Below the pieces are notes generated by a model. That model did not search any database. It was not told the DNA's origin and was given only the letters and a program-made list of their open reading frames with translations. This document shows, piece by piece, positions 8,652-15,715 of a stretch of DNA of 41,926 nucleotides; position 1 is the first letter of the stretch; each line of letters opens with the position of its first letter. Source of the DNA: a virus. The stretch lies in the UHGV virus genome UHGV-0116964. One strand, written 5' to 3'. Position numbers and translations under genes: made by a program.

Positions 8652-9047
8652 CTACTCACCATCCCCCTTAATCCGCCGTCCCATGTACTTGGCGTACAGT
8701 TCATCGAGTTCTTTCAACCGTAGAGATACGATCCGCAACATGTTCTGTTGTTCTTCTTCGTTTGGGAGTTGATTATAGAGTTCCAACAGTCTCCGTTCGT
8801 CGTGTCTCAAACCGTCCTTAGCATCCACGTCCTGACCTAGAACCCACTCAAGACTTACGCCTAGCGCATCGGCAAGTTTTATTGCTGAGCTTTTTCCTAT
8901 CGCTCCTCTGACAAACCAGTTGTTGACTGATTGTGCGCTCACACCACAGATTCTCGCTATATCCGCTTTGGATATGCGCTTCTTCTCGATGATTTCATTT
9001 AACCGCCGAACCTGCGGGTTATCTGTTTGGTGTGTGTTTTTTCTCAT
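8652..9047 (-). CDS. Prophage repressor, DicA/RacR-like HTH (XRE family)
   Basis: 131 aa; N-terminal HTH (ISKADIARICGVSAQSVNNW); C-terminal LLELYNQLPNEEE resembles the DicA tail; divergent from a cro-like gene across operator palindromes. Confidence 0.8.
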   Translation of the reverse strand: MRKNTHQTDNPQVRRLNEIIEKKRISKADIARICGVSAQSVNNWFVRGAIGKSSAIKLADALGVSLEWVLGQDVDAKDGLRHDERRLLELYNQLPNEEEQQNMLRIVSLRLKELDELYAKYMGRRIKGDGE

Positions 9048-9080: not shown

Positions 9081-9121
9081 CAACATTCATAATGTTGACT
9101 TGAACATAAACATAATGTTTA
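9081..9121. promoter_or_regulatory. OR-like operator pair with divergent promoters
   Basis: CAACAT-tcata-ATGTTG (about 9081..9097) and TAAACA-TAA-TGTTTA (about 9107..9121); TTGACT -35 at about 9095 for the rightward promoter; TAGAAT -10 on the minus strand 7 nt before the repressor ATG (near-leaderless). Confidence 0.55.
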
Positions 9122-9150: not shown

Positions 9151-9384
9151 ATGAAAGCACTTGATAAAGCAATATGCATCGTAGGGGGTGCAACCCGTTT
9201 AGCAGAAAAGCTCAATGTATCCCCAATGACGGTCAGTCACTGGCGTCACCGTGACAATGGATTCGTACCGGCTAACCGTGTCATTCCTATTTTCAATGCT
9301 ACAGGTGTAACTCCACATGAGTTACGCCCTGATTTGTACCTCAACCCTACGGATGGATTACCGGCTCAGGAAGCGAGGGCATAA
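9151..9384 (+). CDS. Cro-like HTH regulator (YdaS-type)
   Basis: 77 aa from the ATG at 9151 (GGAG SD); MKALDKAICIVGGATRLAEKLNVS...GFVPA pattern; divergent from the repressor. Confidence 0.7.
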   Translation: MKALDKAICIVGGATRLAEKLNVSPMTVSHWRHRDNGFVPANRVIPIFNATGVTPHELRPDLYLNPTDGLPAQEARA

Positions 9385-9386
9385 CC

Positions 9387-9926
9387 ATGCAGTCACTATC
9401 ACTTCATCAAAATAGCGGATATCAAACGGCTGCGATGATAAATCGCAATCAACCTGTCTCGGTAGATAAACATGACCAGATCCGCGATGCCGTTCGTGCG
9501 TGGGCGGGTGTAGATGGTCAGGATGTCGTTTCTGCTCTGATCATCGAAGAGTACCAGGCTCAAGGGGGAGACGAGATCACTTTCCCTGATGACCTCAGCC
9601 GACAGCGTCAGAAGCTTTTCCGCTTTCTGGATAACCATTTCAACAGCGAACGGTACCGCGAAAACGTTCGCCAGCTGACTCCGGCAATCCTCGCTGTCCT
9701 GCCGATTGAATACCGCAATCGTCTGCTACCAGAAGACAACGTAATGGCTCGTCTGGCAAGGCTGGAGAAGGAAACCAGCGAAGCGAAGATTGCTGTCGCA
9801 ATGGATGCGCCACGTCATCAGAAGCTGAAAGAGTTGAGCGAGGGGATCGTGGAGATGTATCGCGTTGACCCTGGGTTAACCGGTCCGTTGATGGAAATGG
9901 TGCAGATTATGCTGGGGGCTATATGA
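9387..9926 (+). CDS. YdaT-like (CII-position) protein
   Basis: 179 aa; immediately follows the YdaS-like gene as in Rac; family assignment from memory only. Confidence 0.5.
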   Translation: MQSLSLHQNSGYQTAAMINRNQPVSVDKHDQIRDAVRAWAGVDGQDVVSALIIEEYQAQGGDEITFPDDLSRQRQKLFRFLDNHFNSERYRENVRQLTPAILAVLPIEYRNRLLPEDNVMARLARLEKETSEAKIAVAMDAPRHQKLKELSEGIVEMYRVDPGLTGPLMEMVQIMLGAI

Positions 9927-10010: not shown

Positions 10011-10919
10011 ATGTCAAACACCGCTGAAATAATCAATTTCCCAAATAAAACCGAACAACCGGGAGGTCGTATGGCCGACCTGTCGAACGGGTATACCAAG
10101 GTCGCTAACGAGATCCAACAGCTTAAGCCTCGCCTGAGACTGTCAGGCCGGGAATGGCAATGTTTTGAGGCGGTGATCTGGCTTACCTACGGCTGGAACA
10201 AGAAACAGGACCGCGTGACAAATACGGTTATTGCCGAGCTTACGGGCCTGAGCGATACGCATGTATCGGACGCGCTTAAGTCTCTCGCAGAACGCAAAAT
10301 CATCTTTTCACAGAAGCAGGGCATGATGAAAATCGTCGGTGTAAACACTGACCTTTCAGCATGGATTTTAGACAAACCGGAAACGGGAAGAAAATTCCCG
10401 AAAACGGGAAAATCCTTCCCGAAATCAGGAATAACCTTCCCGAAAACGGTAGACACCCAATACAAGAACAAGAACAGTATTAAAAGATCTTCGTCCGAGA
10501 ATTCTGACGAATCCTCTGACGCACGTCTGAAGAAATTTTTATCAACTCATCCTGAAGCTGCGGTCTACACACCATCCGGTGCGAAGTGGGGCTCTGCTGA
10601 AGACCTCGAGACAGCTAAGTGGATTTCCTCCAGGGTGAAGCTGATTAACCCAACCTGCAAAGCCCCGGACATGACCTCCTGGTCTAACACTGTTCGCCTG
10701 ATGCGCCAGATAGACGACCGGTCGCACCAGGACATCTGCGCGCTGTATGACTGGGCTAGCAAACACCACTTCTGGCAGACCAACATCCTGAGTCCCGAAA
10801 GCCTGCGTAAGCAGTGGGACAAGCTGACAATGCAGCGTAACGCCGGAGGTGAGCAGCGCGCTGTCAAGCCAGATCTGGACTTCAACAACACTGACTGGGC
10901 CTATGGGGTGATCCGATGA
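10011..10919 (+). CDS. Replication initiator O (lambda O-like)
   Basis: Track ORF 9978..10919; from the ATG at 10011 (GGAGAA SD) the N-terminus MSNTAEIINF...ADLSNGY matches lambda O MTNTAKILNF...ADLDDGY; iterons embedded in the gene. Confidence 0.8.
   Translation: MSNTAEIINFPNKTEQPGGRMADLSNGYTKVANEIQQLKPRLRLSGREWQCFEAVIWLTYGWNKKQDRVTNTVIAELTGLSDTHVSDALKSLAERKIIFSQKQGMMKIVGVNTDLSAWILDKPETGRKFPKTGKSFPKSGITFPKTVDTQYKNKNSIKRSSSENSDESSDARLKKFLSTHPEAAVYTPSGAKWGSAEDLETAKWISSRVKLINPTCKAPDMTSWSNTVRLMRQIDDRSHQDICALYDWASKHHFWQTNILSPESLRKQWDKLTMQRNAGGEQRAVKPDLDFNNTDWAYGVIR
10377..10454 (+). repeat. Origin iterons: four copies of TTCCCGAAAACGGGAA-like units at 21-bp spacing, followed by an AT-rich stretch
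   Basis: Units at about 10377, 10395, 10416, 10437; encode the FPKTG peptide repeats in O; same arrangement as lambda ori inside O. Confidence 0.6.
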
Positions 10920-11605
10920 AATCTCTTGCAGAGCAGATGCGTAACCACGACCGCGAGCAGATGAGCCGCATGGCCCATAACCTGCCAGAGCAGTACCAGG
11001 AGTGCGCGCCGGTCGAGCAGGTGGCGCAGGTATTCAACAAGCTGTTCAACGAGCTGCGCGCCGCGTTCCCGGCCAGCATGGCGAACTTCCGCACCCAGGA
11101 AGACCTGAACGAATTCCGCCGTCAGTGGCTGCTGGCGTTTCAGGAGAACGGGATCCACACCATGGCTCAGGTCGATGCCGGCATGCGCATTGCCCGCCGC
11201 CAGGAGCGCCCATTCCTGCCGTCGCCGGGCCAGTTCGTCGCCTGGTGCAAGCAGAGCGGCGGCGCGCTGGGCGTCAACGTTGACCAGGTGATCGCCGAAT
11301 ACTGGGACTGGCGTAACCGCTCGTTCGAATTCATCTCCAGCGAGCAATTTCCATGGTCGCAGCCGGTCATGTACCACATTTGCGTAGAATTGCGCCACCG
11401 CAGCACCGAGCGCCAGTTAACGCATGGTGAACTGGCACGCGAGGCAGGCGATCTGCTGGACATGTGGGAAAGGCGCGTCACCGAGGGTAAGCCAGTGCCG
11501 CCGGTACGCCGGGCTATTGCCGCACCAGCTGCCGAGCAAGGGCCGACGCCGATCCAGCTGCTGCTGGCCAAGTACAACCGCAACAAGTCGAACGGGATGG
11601 TGTGA
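10916..11605 (+). CDS. Replication protein P (helicase loader, lambda P-like)
   Basis: 229 aa; MKSLAEQMRNHDREQM...RPFLPSPGQFVAWC is near-identical in pattern to lambda P; ATGA overlap with O. Confidence 0.85.
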   Translation: MKSLAEQMRNHDREQMSRMAHNLPEQYQECAPVEQVAQVFNKLFNELRAAFPASMANFRTQEDLNEFRRQWLLAFQENGIHTMAQVDAGMRIARRQERPFLPSPGQFVAWCKQSGGALGVNVDQVIAEYWDWRNRSFEFISSEQFPWSQPVMYHICVELRHRSTERQLTHGELAREAGDLLDMWERRVTEGKPVPPVRRAIAAPAAEQGPTPIQLLLAKYNRNKSNGMV

Positions 11606-12183: not shown

Positions 12184-12299
12184 TCCATAATATGCATGCC
12201 ATCGTCCTGAACATACGGTGGCATGCATCCGGCACTACAACAGAAACGTTAAAGTGCAAACAATACAATTCGAGCAATATTCAACCTGTCACAGATGGC

Positions 12300-12428
12300 G
12301 AATACCACCGCCATTTCGTGCATTCTGTGGTTTCTATTACCCATTGCGTTAATGCTGTCCAATCATCAGCTCGCTGAGGCGCTGGTTAGGGCTAACCTAC
12401 AGGAGCTTTGTCAGCAGAAACAAATAGC
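12300..12428 (+). pseudogene. Second, frameshifted copy of the methyltransferase C-terminal tail
   Basis: The 3' ~55 bp (...EALVRANLQELCQQKQIAA*) is a diverged direct repeat of 11790..11847; upstream HCVNAV resembles GNAV but in another frame. Confidence 0.35.
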
Positions 12429-12452
12429 GGCGTAATAAAACATCGCTAATTC

Positions 12453-12480
12453 AACCCGCTACGGCGGGTTTTCTTTTTTT
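12453..12480 (+). terminator. Intrinsic terminator
   Basis: AACCCGC-TACG-GCGGGTT hairpin followed by TTCTTTTTTT. Confidence 0.7.
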
Positions 12481-12542
12481 ACTACTGACAGAAAATTAAC
12501 AATTTGTGCTCTTAAAGCGTTGATCATTTCCGCGCATAGGTA

Positions 12543-12562
12543 TACTGTATAAAAACACAGTA
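12543..12562. promoter_or_regulatory. LexA (SOS) box TACTGTATAAAAACACAGTA
   Basis: CTGT-N8-ACAG; overlaps a candidate promoter (TTGATC ... TATACT) about 20 nt upstream of the dinI-like gene. Confidence 0.7.
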
Positions 12563-12580
12563 AATGCAATGGGGGCCATT

Positions 12581-12814
12581 ATGAAAGTTGAATTAACCAT
12601 TGATCGCATGAAAGAACTTCCTAAAGGCGCAGTACCAGCACTGGAGAAAGAACTGCTTAAGCGCCTGAATGATCACTATGACAATTGCAGGCTCACAATC
12701 CGCCGTGCCGGGGCCGATGGGTTAAGTGTTTTTGGTGGTGACAAGGACGATAAAAAGAAAATTGAATCAATCCTCCAGGATACCTGGGAAAGCGCTGACG
12801 ACTGGTTTTATTAG
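12581..12814 (+). CDS. dinI: DinI-like protein
   Basis: 77 aa from the ATG at 12581; C-terminal ESILQDTWESADDWF matches E. coli DinI (SEILQETWESADDWF); LexA box upstream. Confidence 0.85.
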   Translation: MKVELTIDRMKELPKGAVPALEKELLKRLNDHYDNCRLTIRRAGADGLSVFGGDKDDKKKIESILQDTWESADDWFY

Positions 12815-12931
12815 AATTGCGCTTAAGGCTGGCGCGCATTTTTCAGAATACCGCAATTTGCGTAACCCTCTGATGCTGCTGCCGACAATCTTTAATCGCG
12901 TCTGTTAGTCGCTCGAAGGGAGAACATAAAT

Positions 12932-13180
12932 GTGAGTGATTCAGCTTTGCAAACGTCAGAAGACAACTGGTATGACATTGTAAGAAGGTCTGACGGCTGC
13001 GTGGTGTTTAGCTTTCCTTCATCGGGCAGGCATCTAATTTATCGCGTCAATGGCATGGTTTCTATGCGGCCTTTGCTGGATGATGAAGAGGTCTTTACTC
13101 CTAATGGTTTTATGCAGTTTATTCACCGTCTCGGCTACCGGGTAACCCCACCTTCTGATAATATGAAATCAACGGTCTGA
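12932..13180 (+). CDS. Hypothetical protein
   Basis: Track ORF (GTG start); no recognised domain. Confidence 0.4.
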   Translation: MSDSALQTSEDNWYDIVRRSDGCVVFSFPSSGRHLIYRVNGMVSMRPLLDDEEVFTPNGFMQFIHRLGYRVTPPSDNMKSTV

Positions 13181-13214
13181 ACAACCGTAACCTACTGCGC
13201 CACGGAGAGAAACC

Positions 13215-13814
13215 ATGGCGCACGAACTACAACTCATCAAGCATTCCTCAGGAATCCTGATCCCCGCTACGCCGGAGACCAGTGATTTACTGCAATCAAA
13301 AATCAAACTCGGCTCCGTACTGGTGGCTGAGTTCCGGCAGGTACGCAACCCGGCCTTTCACCGTCGTTTCTTCGCGTTACTCAATCTCGGTTTCGAATAC
13401 TGGGAACCCACCGGCGGGGCAATCTCCTCCAACGAACGCAAGCTGGTAACCGGCTATGCCAAGTTCCTTGCCTCATTCGCGGGAAGTGAAGCAGCACTCC
13501 TGGATGCTGCTGAGCAATATCTGGACCGCATCGCCGATAAGCGTACTGGTAGCATCTGCGCCTGTAAGTCATTCGATGCATATCGTGCATGGGTCACTAT
13601 TGAGTCCGGCCATTACGACGCCATTCAGCTGCCTGACGGCACCCTCCGCAAACATCCCCGCAGTATCTCATTCGCAAATATGGATGAAACTGAGTTCCAG
13701 CAGCTGTACAAAGCCGCGCTCGATGTTCTGTGGCGATGGATACTCTCCCGATCATTTCGCAGTTGTGAAGAGGCAGAAAACGCCGCCGCCCAGCTGATGA
13801 GCTTTGCGGGGTGA
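13215..13814 (+). CDS. Conserved phage protein of unknown function (nin-region)
   Basis: 199 aa track ORF. Confidence 0.55.
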   Translation: MAHELQLIKHSSGILIPATPETSDLLQSKIKLGSVLVAEFRQVRNPAFHRRFFALLNLGFEYWEPTGGAISSNERKLVTGYAKFLASFAGSEAALLDAAEQYLDRIADKRTGSICACKSFDAYRAWVTIESGHYDAIQLPDGTLRKHPRSISFANMDETEFQQLYKAALDVLWRWILSRSFRSCEEAENAAAQLMSFAG

Positions 13815-14020
13815 TGGCGATGAAATTTTCCTGGTTCCACCATCACGAATGCACCACCGAACAGGCCGACGAGCTGGTGGAGAAATACCGGGCGCGCGGT
13901 GTAAAGACAGAGCGCAGCCTGAATCGCGACAACATCACCTGGACCGTCAGCGCGCAATTGCCGGAAGGCGATAACGCGCCTCGCCCGAGCCGGGTATGGC
14001 AAAGCAAGGCGTGGGGGTGA
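13811..14020 (+). CDS. Hypothetical small protein
   Basis: Track ORF, ATGA-coupled to the upstream gene. Confidence 0.4.
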   Translation: MMAMKFSWFHHHECTTEQADELVEKYRARGVKTERSLNRDNITWTVSAQLPEGDNAPRPSRVWQSKAWG

Positions 14021-14022
14021 GC

Positions 14023-14313
14023 ATGGCAAATTTACGCAAAGAGGCTCGTGGTCGTGATTGTCAGGTTCGAATTCCCGGCGTCTGCAACGGTAACCCGGAA
14101 ACGTCTGTACTGGCGCACATTCGCCTGGCCGGGTTATGTGGCACCGGAATCAAACCGCCTGATCTGATTGCCACCATTGCATGCTCTGCCTGTCACGACG
14201 AGATCGACCGCCGTACACATTTTGTCGATGCTGAGTATGCTAAAGAATGCGCGCTGGAAGGTATGGCGAGAACGCAGGTTATCTGGCTGAAAGAGGGGGT
14301 AATCAAGGCGTGA
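14023..14313 (+). CDS. YbcO-like cysteine-rich putative nuclease
   Basis: ~96 aa from the ATG at 14023 (GTGGGGG SD); [13 protein letters not shown]...[11 protein letters not shown] cysteine pattern; sits just before rusA as in DLP12. Confidence 0.6.
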
Positions 14314-14672
14314 ATACTTACAACATCACATTGCCCTGGCCGCCGAGCAATAACCGCTACTACCGCCATAATCGCGGGCGCACGCACATCAGCGCAGAAG
14401 GGCAGGCATACCGCGATAACGTCGCCCGAATCATTAAAAACGCAATGCTGGATATCGGTCTGGCTATGCCTGTGAAAATCCGCATTGAGTGCCACATGCC
14501 GGATCGCCGTCGCCGTGACCTGGATAATCTGCAAAAGGCCGCTTTTGACGCACTCACCAAAGCAGGTTTCTGGCTGGACGATGCTCAGGTCGTTGATTAT
14601 CGCGTTGTGAAGATGCCCGTTACCAAAGGTGGAAAGCTGGAACTGACAATCACCGGGCTGGAGGCCGTATGA
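14310..14672 (+). CDS. rusA: Holliday junction resolvase RusA
   Basis: GTG start; [35 protein letters not shown]...[28 protein letters not shown] is near-identical to E. coli RusA. Confidence 0.9.
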
Positions 14673-14805
14673 CATTTGAATCCTGTTTTTCCGATCACCT
14701 CCGCGTTCGCTGGCAGCGGCTTCGCTTATACCACTTTCCCGGCTCTGTGCTAACGGACTACCGGATACTGAAGAATTACGTGAAAACTTATGCTGGAGAA
14801 GCGCT

Positions 14806-15588
14806 ATGAACCTTGAAAACACAGTGAAATACCACTTCGCTAAATCCACACTGATTAGCGATTCTCCGCGCGCTACCGCCTCCGATTCACTGACCGGTAC
14901 CGACATAATGGCTGCCATGGGCATGACGCAGGAACGCGCCGCAATGGGTTACAGCGCCTTCCTCGGCAAGATGGGCATAAGCAATAACGACCGGGATCGG
15001 GCGATCGGTCTGCTGGCTGAGTACGCGATGACAAAATGCGACAAGGTTGCCGCACTGCGTAAGCTCGGTGCCGCGGTTAAACCTCAGGTGATGCACCAGT
15101 TGGCCACCTTCGCTTTTGAGGACTATTCCCGCAGCGCTGCCAGCGTGAAGCAGTGCGATTGTTGTGACGGTCAGGGCTTCATTGAGGCTGACGTGTTTAC
15201 CAATAAATTCCGTAAGCCAGAAGGGAAAATGACCGTGTCCGGGATGGTGAAGGTCAAAGAATCCATCAAAGTGCTATGCAAAAAGTGTAATGGCTCTGGT
15301 GTGGTTAGTGCTTCTTGCAGTGATTGCCATGGGCGCGGCAAGGCAGTGAACCAGGCTCTTACTGAGAAACAGGGCGTTCCTGTTCTGGCTGACTGTAAGC
15401 GCTGCGGAGGGCGTGGGTATGAACGACTTCCGTCGACTGAAGCCTATGCTGCTGTATGCCAGATTACTGACGCCATTAGCCTGGACACCTGGAAAAAGTC
15501 TGTTAAGCCATTCTACGACCTGCTGATCACGAAATTTGATATCGAAGAGTCCTGGGCCGAAAAACAGCTTAAGCAGATAACGCGGTAA
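14806..15588 (+). CDS. Late-gene antiterminator Q-like protein with four CxxCxGxG zinc-finger repeats
   Basis: 260 aa; position between rusA and the lysis genes; followed by a terminator about 100 nt downstream. Confidence 0.6.
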   Translation: MNLENTVKYHFAKSTLISDSPRATASDSLTGTDIMAAMGMTQERAAMGYSAFLGKMGISNNDRDRAIGLLAEYAMTKCDKVAALRKLGAAVKPQVMHQLATFAFEDYSRSAASVKQCDCCDGQGFIEADVFTNKFRKPEGKMTVSGMVKVKESIKVLCKKCNGSGVVSASCSDCHGRGKAVNQALTEKQGVPVLADCKRCGGRGYERLPSTEAYAAVCQITDAISLDTWKKSVKPFYDLLITKFDIEESWAEKQLKQITR

Positions 15589-15687
15589 CGCCTATAGCGA
15601 TAGCCTATGATTTTGTCTTGGGCTATTTACTTTTCCCGAATCTGTGTTAATTTTGTCCCAACGATGGGTTAATGCCTTCGTTTCAAG

Positions 15688-15715
15688 CCCTGCGGATAAC
15701 ACCGTGGGGTTTTTT
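15688..15715 (+). terminator. tR'-like intrinsic terminator downstream of Q
   Basis: CCCTGCGG-ATAACA-CCGTGGGG (two GU pairs) followed by TTTTTT. Confidence 0.5.

Follow-up and report, generated by a model that had tools for sequence, protein, structure and literature searches.

A probable LexA-repressed induction operon of the Gifsy type, dinI–gfoA–irsA, in an Escherichia coli lambdoid prophage

A candidate promoter overlapped by a LexA box and followed by a dinI homologue in an E. coli prophage is best explained as the start, with promoter-operator and leading gene, of a Gifsy-type induction operon under LexA repression, dinI–gfoA–irsA, in which an antirepressor inactivates a non-cleavable repressor; a probability of roughly 0.85 is assigned to this explanation. 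The system itself is already known from the Gifsy phages (Lemire, Figueroa-Bossi, Bossi 2011, PMC3121763), and the present analysis is a re-identification together with a modest comparative generalisation. The anatomy of the locus, the homology of its products and their conservation among related loci are direct observations. A first-pass annotation of the same DNA had described an SOS-controlled dinI gene. Both the SOS control and the identity of DinI stood up, whereas dinI as the functional unit and main payload did not; the next gene (12932-13180) had been missed.

The Gifsy operon

The Gifsy operon of Salmonella comprises a dinI homologue, an antirepressor gene and an irsA homologue, and is LexA-dependent (Lemire, Figueroa-Bossi, Bossi 2011, PMC3121763). 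The antirepressor gene (gfoA, gfhA or gftA) is small and has a non-canonical GUG or UUG start codon (PMC3121763). Placing araC-PBAD in the position of the Gifsy LexA box region makes induction dependent on arabinose, and the small GUG/UUG open reading frame (ORF) alone induces a Gifsy prophage (PMC3121763). In the characterised homologues the small antirepressor is needed for induction (PMC3121763, PMC5322425). The Gifsy repressors are short (about 130-150 amino acids), resemble the N-terminal domain of CI only, and remain uncleaved on induction; repressor and antirepressor form stable complexes, and the repressor is displaced from DNA (PMC3121763). GfoA inactivates the heteroimmune repressors GfoR and GfhR, and cross-talk and non-cognate pairs are documented, e.g. 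FsoA of Fels-1 acts on Gifsy-2 (PMC3121763). Lemire et al. explicitly predicted that the antirepressor system would extend to Escherichia prophages (PMC3121763). A single SNP in the -10 element of Gifsy-1 PdinI-gfoA abolishes phage production (Owen et al., PMC5322425), and the three Gifsy dinI genes show 4.6- to 23-fold SOS induction with nalidixic acid (Mérida-Floriano et al., PMC8072944). Every defining feature of the Gifsy-type module that can be tested on sequence, namely the box, the palindrome, the non-ATG ORF, the DUF1367 gene and the short repressor, is present in the DNA described here.

Genomic context and distribution

The window, i.e. the whole stretch of 41,926 nucleotides that was analysed, is an E. 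coli lambdoid prophage containing integrase, RecE/RecT, an immunity region, O/P, nin-type genes, a Q-like antiterminator, and lysis and head genes. The locus has replication gene P (10916-11605) on one side and the gene for the Q-like antiterminator (14806-15588) on the other, in agreement with its earlier placement in the nin region. The third gene of the putative operon is an irsA homologue (13215-13814, plus strand) encoding a DUF1367 protein of 199 amino acids (Pfam PF07105, E=9.3e-93), which is syntenic with STM2620 of Gifsy-1. Gifsy-1 (STM2621 dinI, STM2621.1n, STM2620), SEN34 and mEp237 share this gene order, and in each of these phages a small ORF that is unannotated or called 'hypothetical' follows the dinI homologue and is itself followed by the DUF1367 gene.

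Over the 541 bp that surround the finding, the window shares 99.6% identity with mEp237, an isolated phage in which the identity of the module is 99.2-99.6%. Of 5426 complete E. coli genomes, 52 have one chromosomal copy of the 781-bp module (12440-13220); in mEp237 and about 50 E. coli genomes the identity is 99-100%. In the window, the three ORFs, the box and the promoter are each intact. The antirepressor is annotated as 'hypothetical' in all E. coli RefSeq matches, and the protein falls in PHROG 340, whose label is 'unknown function'; what automated annotation displays is therefore dinI alone, and the probable induction switch goes unnoticed.

The promoter, the LexA box and the upstream terminator

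The candidate promoter, PdinI (12520-12546, plus strand), was read from the sequence and consists of a -35 hexamer TTGATC (12520-12525) and a -10 hexamer TATACT (12541-12546) separated by a 15-nt spacer. The first base of the -35 hexamer, 12520, is also the base at which the first-pass annotation began its feature. A sigma-70 consensus scan that allowed spacers of 16-18 nt did not call PdinI because its spacer is 15 nt long. The LexA (SOS) box, TACTGTATAAAAACACAGTA (12543-12562, plus strand), overlaps the -10 hexamer, as had been proposed, and ends 18 nt before the ATG of dinI. This 20-mer has a single copy in the 41.9-kb window and appeared in none of 100 dinucleotide-preserving shuffles. It is likewise the sole match to CTGT-N8-ACAG across the window and the only site there with three or fewer mismatches to the palindromic consensus TACTG(TA)5CAGTA, where none would be expected. 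All three of its mismatches fall in the central spacer, while the CTGT/ACAG arms and the flanking TA are perfect. The distance to the start codon matches the published geometry of the Gifsy dinI genes, for which a single box is listed at '19 bp' from the ATG (PMC8072944).

An intrinsic terminator was located by a terminator scan on the plus strand 5' of the SOS promoter (12453-12480), which bears out the earlier remark that a strong terminator lies just upstream. It is composed of a G+C-rich hairpin of 7 bp (12453-12470; AACCCGC-TACG-GCGGGTT) and the T run that follows it (TTCTTTTTTT). The element folds at -12.8 kcal/mol (z=-5.2), and none of 200 shuffles folded as well. The same hairpin is found in the same place in Gifsy-1, SEN34, and Klebsiella and Citrobacter phages, and a terminator-like palindrome before the LexA box has been described for the Gifsy phages (PMC3121763). 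Such a terminator would block leaky read-through from the early-right region into the antirepressor gene.

The dinI gene

The dinI homologue (12581-12814, plus strand) encodes 77 amino acids from an ATG start, with a Shine-Dalgarno sequence GGGGG (12571-12575) five bases 5' of the ATG. The earlier description of the product as a DinI homologue is confirmed by Pfam DinI PF06183 (E=3.8e-26; 91.6 bits against a cut-off of 24.2), in which profile positions 1-63 of 63 are covered, and by E. coli DinI of PDB entry 1GHH (E=9.5e-18). The acidic C-terminal helix, ILQ-TWESADDWF, is kept, such that IESILQDTWESADDWF in the window protein aligns with ISEILQETWESADDWF in 1GHH; this helix has been implicated in the interaction with RecA (Voloshin et al. 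2001, as cited in PMC3121763). The NCBIfam equivalog for chromosomal DinI, NF007893, gave 91.4 bits, which is below its cut-off of 111, and the window protein is therefore a phage paralogue of chromosomal DinI and not its orthologue. The name given by PGAP is 'DinI family protein'. The protein falls in PHROG 189, in which it matches the second half only (positions 71-148 of 151).

The putative antirepressor gene

An 82-amino-acid ORF with a GTG start (12932-13180, plus strand) follows dinI and is the candidate gene for a GfoA-type antirepressor, the presumed trigger of induction. Published gfoA primers match the window at 19 of 21 nt (12935-12955) and at 35 of 40 nt (13123-13162). The ends of gfoA were deduced from the lambda-Red primers in Table S1 of PMC3121763: the 5' primer, ATG-AGTAATTCAGCTTTGCAAAAG, translates to MSNSALQK, and the end of the 3' tagging primer translates to ...RRLGYRVTPPSD. 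The window ORF encodes MSDSALQT...HRLGYRVTPPSDN. SEN34 and several Salmonella-type loci in IMG/VR contain the exact gfoA 5' 21-mer together with the TTG start that PMC3121763 describes, and the window protein differs from the SEN34/Salmonella protein at 6 of 82 residues. Salmonella homologues that begin MSNSALQK are 90% identical. From the primer-derived ends of gfoA and these close Salmonella homologues, the product is assigned as a putative GfoA-type antirepressor.

Database homologues of the protein come from Salmonella, Citrobacter, Enterobacter, Klebsiella and E. coli, and all are named 'hypothetical'. Searches of the protein against Pfam and NCBIfam returned no family. A GftA-type identity was also considered and was ruled out: BLASTP of the protein against GftA of LT2 Gifsy-1 gave no similarity, and the ORF is therefore not of the GftA type. 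An AlphaFold2 model of the protein, with four strands and a single helix, has a moderate pLDDT of 67, and Foldseek matched this model to no PDB entry at E<2.

The repressor and the immunity region

The presumed target of the antirepressor is a prophage repressor of 131 amino acids (8652-9047, minus strand), which in Pfam matches HTH families only, without Peptidase_S24. Divergent from it, on the plus strand in the early-right region, are a Cro analogue of the YdaS family (9151-9384; Pfam PF15943, E=7.6e-16) and a CII analogue of the YdaT family (9387-9926; Pfam PF06254, E=1.9e-25). Repressors of the lambda CI type are marked by an S24 peptidase domain at the C-terminus that contains a cleavage site; the window repressor has none. 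A tblastn search of the whole window with LexA, lambda CI and UmuD found no S24-like region at E<2, and the PGAP annotation of a near-identical prophage in E. coli LR-33 lists no S24 protein.

The repressor is 27% identical to GftR/GtgR over 127 amino acids (E=1e-9). Its N-terminus, MRKNTHQ, resembles that of GfoR, MKEKTHQ, and its C-terminus, AKYMGRRIKGDGE, resembles that of GfhR, AKYMSRRIKGEGA; the GfoR and GfhR ends were deduced from primers. The best NCBIfam match, below the cut-off, is DicA, the group that Lemire et al. named for these repressors (PMC3121763). Judged by the primer-derived termini, the 27% identity to GtgR and the HTH-only composition, the protein is placed as a probable member of the GfoR/GfhR group.

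Antirepressor and repressor alleles vary in their pairing. The window gfoA allele (at least 98% identity) was found in 51 E. coli genomes and the window repressor allele in 12, and the same gfoA allele is paired with several repressor alleles. In LR-33, a gfoA gene that is 100% identical in DNA sits beside a repressor with GfoR-like termini (MKEKT..., ...EKYMKGRIRSQGD). When the repressors paired with the window gfoA allele were aligned, with homologues from LR-33 and mEp237, the C-terminal halves were 73-77% identical and the HTH halves 47-51% identical. This pattern suggests that the antirepressor may target the repressor through its conserved C-terminal half, and it fits one antirepressor serving heteroimmune repressors, as GfoA does with GfoR and GfhR.

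Conservation among related loci

The survey covered 11 records of phages and 80 loci from IMG/VR in which close relatives of DinI are encoded. The 5' end of a CTG-N10-CAG box lies 37-39 nt before the dinI ATG in 86 of the 87 loci with enough upstream sequence; the sole exception is SW-37, in which a half-site is mutated and dinI is frameshifted. The related LexA boxes comprise 27 sequence variants in which the half-sites are invariant and only the spacer varies. Among 68 distinct related promoters, the PdinI hexamers and spacing are kept in 42, and the -35 TTGA and -10 TATACT are at least 95% conserved and always 15 nt apart.

An ORF of 60-96 amino acids follows dinI in all 92 loci (78 GfoA-like, 9 GftA-like and 5 in two further BLAST clusters that still match PHROG 340). 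Non-canonical start codons prevail among the 67 distinct downstream coding sequences, with 61 GTG, 3 TTG and 3 ATG (64 of 67 GTG or TTG), and none of the 67 has an in-frame ATG within codons 2-15. The start of dinI is ATG in 71 of 73 distinct coding sequences. These counts generalise the non-canonical start noted by Lemire et al. and suggest that there may be selection for weak translation of the antirepressor.

The spacer between dinI and the antirepressor gene

The spacer of 117 nt (12815-12931, plus strand) contains a weak hairpin (12818-12836), a Shine-Dalgarno sequence GGGAG (12918-12922) and, at its 3' end, an ATGTGA start-stop (12930-12935) that overlaps the GTG start of the antirepressor gene. 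The terminator-like hairpin directly after dinI folds no better than shuffles (z=-0.34) and so provides no evidence that dinI and the antirepressor gene are separated; its sequence is also present in Gifsy-1, where co-transcription was demonstrated. A promoter scan between dinI and the antirepressor ORF predicted no sigma-70-like site, and the missing internal promoter is consistent with co-transcription of the two genes.

A structured RNA element in the spacer was considered and found to be unsupported. Rfam searches at gathering thresholds returned nothing for the whole window, and what matched around the locus was at chance level only; the 117-nt spacer as a whole is no more stable than its shuffles (z=+0.42). 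When 23 distinct long spacers were folded together with RNAalifold, the consensus was a weak hairpin in which CCCTTTG pairs with the Shine-Dalgarno region (-8.2 kcal/mol), with no compensatory pairs or covariation. Exceptional conservation of the spacer was also rejected. The spacer is more similar than the dinI coding sequence in the comparison with Gifsy-1 and SEN34 only (81-89% vs 66-80%), whereas in the Klebsiella/PHB10 loci the spacer is 56-61% identical and the dinI coding sequence 66-71%. The higher identity to Gifsy-1 and SEN34 probably reflects mosaic ancestry.

The length of the spacer is bimodal among related loci: it is 35-47 nt in one class and 104-121 nt in the other, to which the window, Gifsy and some Klebsiella phages belong. 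A tentative and rather doubtful proposal is that the near-universal GUG/UUG start, the long spacer of 104-121 nt and, in this allele, the AUG-UGA start-stop form a selected 'throttle' on the antirepressor relative to DinI, which would set the SOS threshold and the delay of induction, with DinI timing LexA cleavage through RecA filaments. A possible CCCT/AGGG anti-Shine-Dalgarno pairing and the weak hairpin after dinI are the parts of such a throttle proposed in the long form of the spacer. At the other end of the operon, no intrinsic terminator is predicted before 15685, so the SOS transcript may possibly extend to the Q antiterminator gene.

Alternative explanations

The conservation of the DinI fold determinants and of the acidic C-terminal helix, and the position of dinI beside the box in every related locus, which indicates that dinI is under selection, would be expected if the locus were a self-contained, SOS-inducible dinI 'moron' whose product is the payload, damping the coprotease activity of RecA and tuning either induction or the SOS response of the host. 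This explanation is nevertheless quite unlikely. An antirepressor-type ORF stands directly downstream of dinI in every one of the 92 loci, with no promoter-like site between them, and the repressor lacks an autocleavage domain on which RecA could act. The earlier suggestion that DinI could dampen RecA coprotease activity, applied to cleavage of the repressor, does not suit this phage: its repressor is an HTH-only protein and the window holds no S24 domain. Deletion of dinI with a scoring of phage release, which had been suggested as a check, has its counterpart in the Gifsy phages, where non-polar dinI deletions in Gifsy-1 and Gifsy-3 caused no significant change in the level or rate of induction (PMC3121763, data not shown). 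Some regulatory role for dinI is suspected by Lemire et al. (PMC3121763). DinI is presumably useful, given its conservation, and is probably an accessory protein that modulates RecA filaments, not the trigger of induction.

It is also conceivable, though very unlikely, that the operon is present but that its antirepressor is ineffective on the repressor of the same prophage, and either acts only in trans on other resident prophages or belongs to a non-functional mosaic relic. The pairing of one gfoA allele with several repressor alleles, the window repressor being in only 12 of the genomes, points in this direction, as do the cross-talk and non-cognate pairs documented for the Gifsy phages. 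The paired repressors, however, share their C-terminal half and differ mainly in the HTH half. Decay in such a locus looks like SW-37, whereas in the window nothing in the box, the promoter or the three ORFs is disrupted.

Proposed mechanism

LexA binding, co-transcription and antirepressor–repressor binding in this prophage are taken from the Gifsy experiments, and the scheme would operate as follows. In the lysogen, LexA of the host would occupy the box over the -10 element of PdinI and keep the operon off, and the upstream terminator would stop read-through from the early-right operon. DNA damage would lead to RecA-stimulated cleavage of LexA and thereby to transcription of dinI–gfoA–irsA. 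The 82-amino-acid antirepressor would then be made from its weak GUG start and accumulate, with DinI co-expressed as an accessory. The antirepressor would bind the short, non-cleavable repressor and strip it from its operators, allowing the lytic programme to proceed.

Comparison with known systems

The closest relatives of the locus are the dinI-gfoA(gfhA)-irsA operons of Gifsy-1 and Gifsy-3 in Salmonella Typhimurium ATCC14028. Shared features include the terminator, the box over the -10 element, the distance between box and ATG, the gene order, the GfoA-type antirepressor, the short GfoR/GfhR-type repressor and the YdaS/YdaT-like early-right region. The window differs in that its host is E. 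coli, its antirepressor gene starts with GTG instead of the TTG of Gifsy, and its box spacer is ATAAAAAC, as compared to GTTTATAT in the Gifsy-1/Gifsy-3 system. The HTH half of the window repressor has also diverged, and the immunity of the prophage therefore presumably differs from that of Gifsy-1 and Gifsy-3. The dinI-gftA-irsA operon of Gifsy-2 (and of LT2 Gifsy-1), which is paired with GtgR/GftR, has the same architecture, and its 117-nt spacer is 81% identical; its antirepressor, however, belongs to another family (PHROG 4847, as compared to PHROG 340 in the window, with no BLASTP similarity), and its repressor is only 27% identical.

A coupling of a LexA-controlled antirepressor to a DinI-like sequence is also seen in Tum of coliphage 186 and in the split tum/dinI of PSP3 and Fels-2. 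In the P2-like phage 186 there is one fused protein with the antirepressor first, whereas the lambdoid window has separate genes with dinI first. Chromosomal E. coli DinI (1GHH) belongs to the same fold family, aligns over residues 1-76, keeps the ILQ(E/D)TWESADDWF helix, and is LexA-controlled, as is predicted for the window gene. It is 47% identical (K-12 sequence, in agreement with the 1GHH chain), and the window gene differs from it in being phage-borne and at the head of a putative induction operon.

Autocleavage of lambda CI or P22 C2 and the module in the window would both couple prophage induction to the SOS response. In contrast to CI and C2, the window repressor has no S24 domain, and SOS would be read through LexA and the antirepressor, which would make induction reversible in principle and would permit cross-talk between prophages. 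The window prophage, mEp237 and roughly 1% of the complete E. coli genomes would carry LexA/antirepressor induction rather than lambda-style cleavage of the repressor.

Candidate promoter region and possible extent of the SOS transcript

Directly 5' of the -35 element (12520-12525) of PdinI, the candidate LexA-controlled promoter of the dinI–antirepressor–irsA operon, lies a conserved block, TTAACAATTTGTGCTCTTAAAGCG (12496-12519). The pattern TTTGTGC.CTTAAA is retained in most of 68 distinct related promoters, with divergence farther upstream, and the block could be an UP-like element or the site of another regulator. Only one of the related loci lacks an intact LexA box, namely that of Salmonella phage SW-37 (L004, 1100-1400), which reads GTGTACAGTGTTTATATACAGTA. 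The dinI gene of this phage is also frameshifted, and the two lesions together suggest that the SW-37 module is undergoing decay.

Farther upstream, 12295-12435 holds an ORF of 46 aa, hydrophobic in its N-terminal half (MANTTAISCILWFLLPIALML...), which stops shortly 5' of the terminator that precedes dinI. Pfam and PHROG searches with this ORF returned no match, and it is not annotated in phage mEp237 or in the near-identical prophage of E. coli LR-33; it may not be a true gene. On the plus strand, no intrinsic terminator is predicted from the weak hairpin following dinI up to 15685-15712 (12837-15712), where a predicted terminator is placed just 3' of the Q-like antiterminator gene (14806-15588). 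Barring Rho termination, transcription begun under SOS might in principle extend as far as Q.

The dinI–antirepressor junction

The spacer between the dinI stop and the antirepressor start, measured in the IMG/VR loci (L012-L091) and the phage loci, is either 35-47 nt or 104-121 nt long, giving two length classes. Spacers of the long class are associated with antirepressors from three or more sequence clusters; the long form therefore travels with dinI, not with the antirepressor.

At the start of the GfoA-type antirepressor gene, an AUG-UGA "start-stop" mini-ORF, ATGTGA (12930-12935), overlaps the GTG start at 12932. Since the Shine-Dalgarno sequence GGGAG (12918-12922) sits 7 nt from the mini-ORF AUG and 9 nt from the antirepressor GUG, the AUG could rival the GUG for initiation. 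Among the related loci compared, the start-stop is found in the window and other mEp237-type loci and also in L040 and L059, and is absent from the Gifsy and Klebsiella loci.

Repressor alleles and operator-like repeats

Repressor alleles were compared from the window (8652-9047, minus strand) and two related loci (L093, 9333-9719; L001, 1170-2049). Where the gfoA allele is the same, the repressors paired with it are conserved in the C-terminal half (73-77% identity) and have diverged in the HTH half (47-51%). Among E. coli genomes, the repressor allele of the window is present in 12 and its antirepressor allele in 51. The 104-bp repressor/cro intergenic region holds the operator-like repeats AACATTCATAATGTT (9082-9096) and AACATAAACATAATGTT (9104-9120). 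In mEp237, whose module is near-identical, gp38 and gp39 are two tandem paralogous repressor-like genes.
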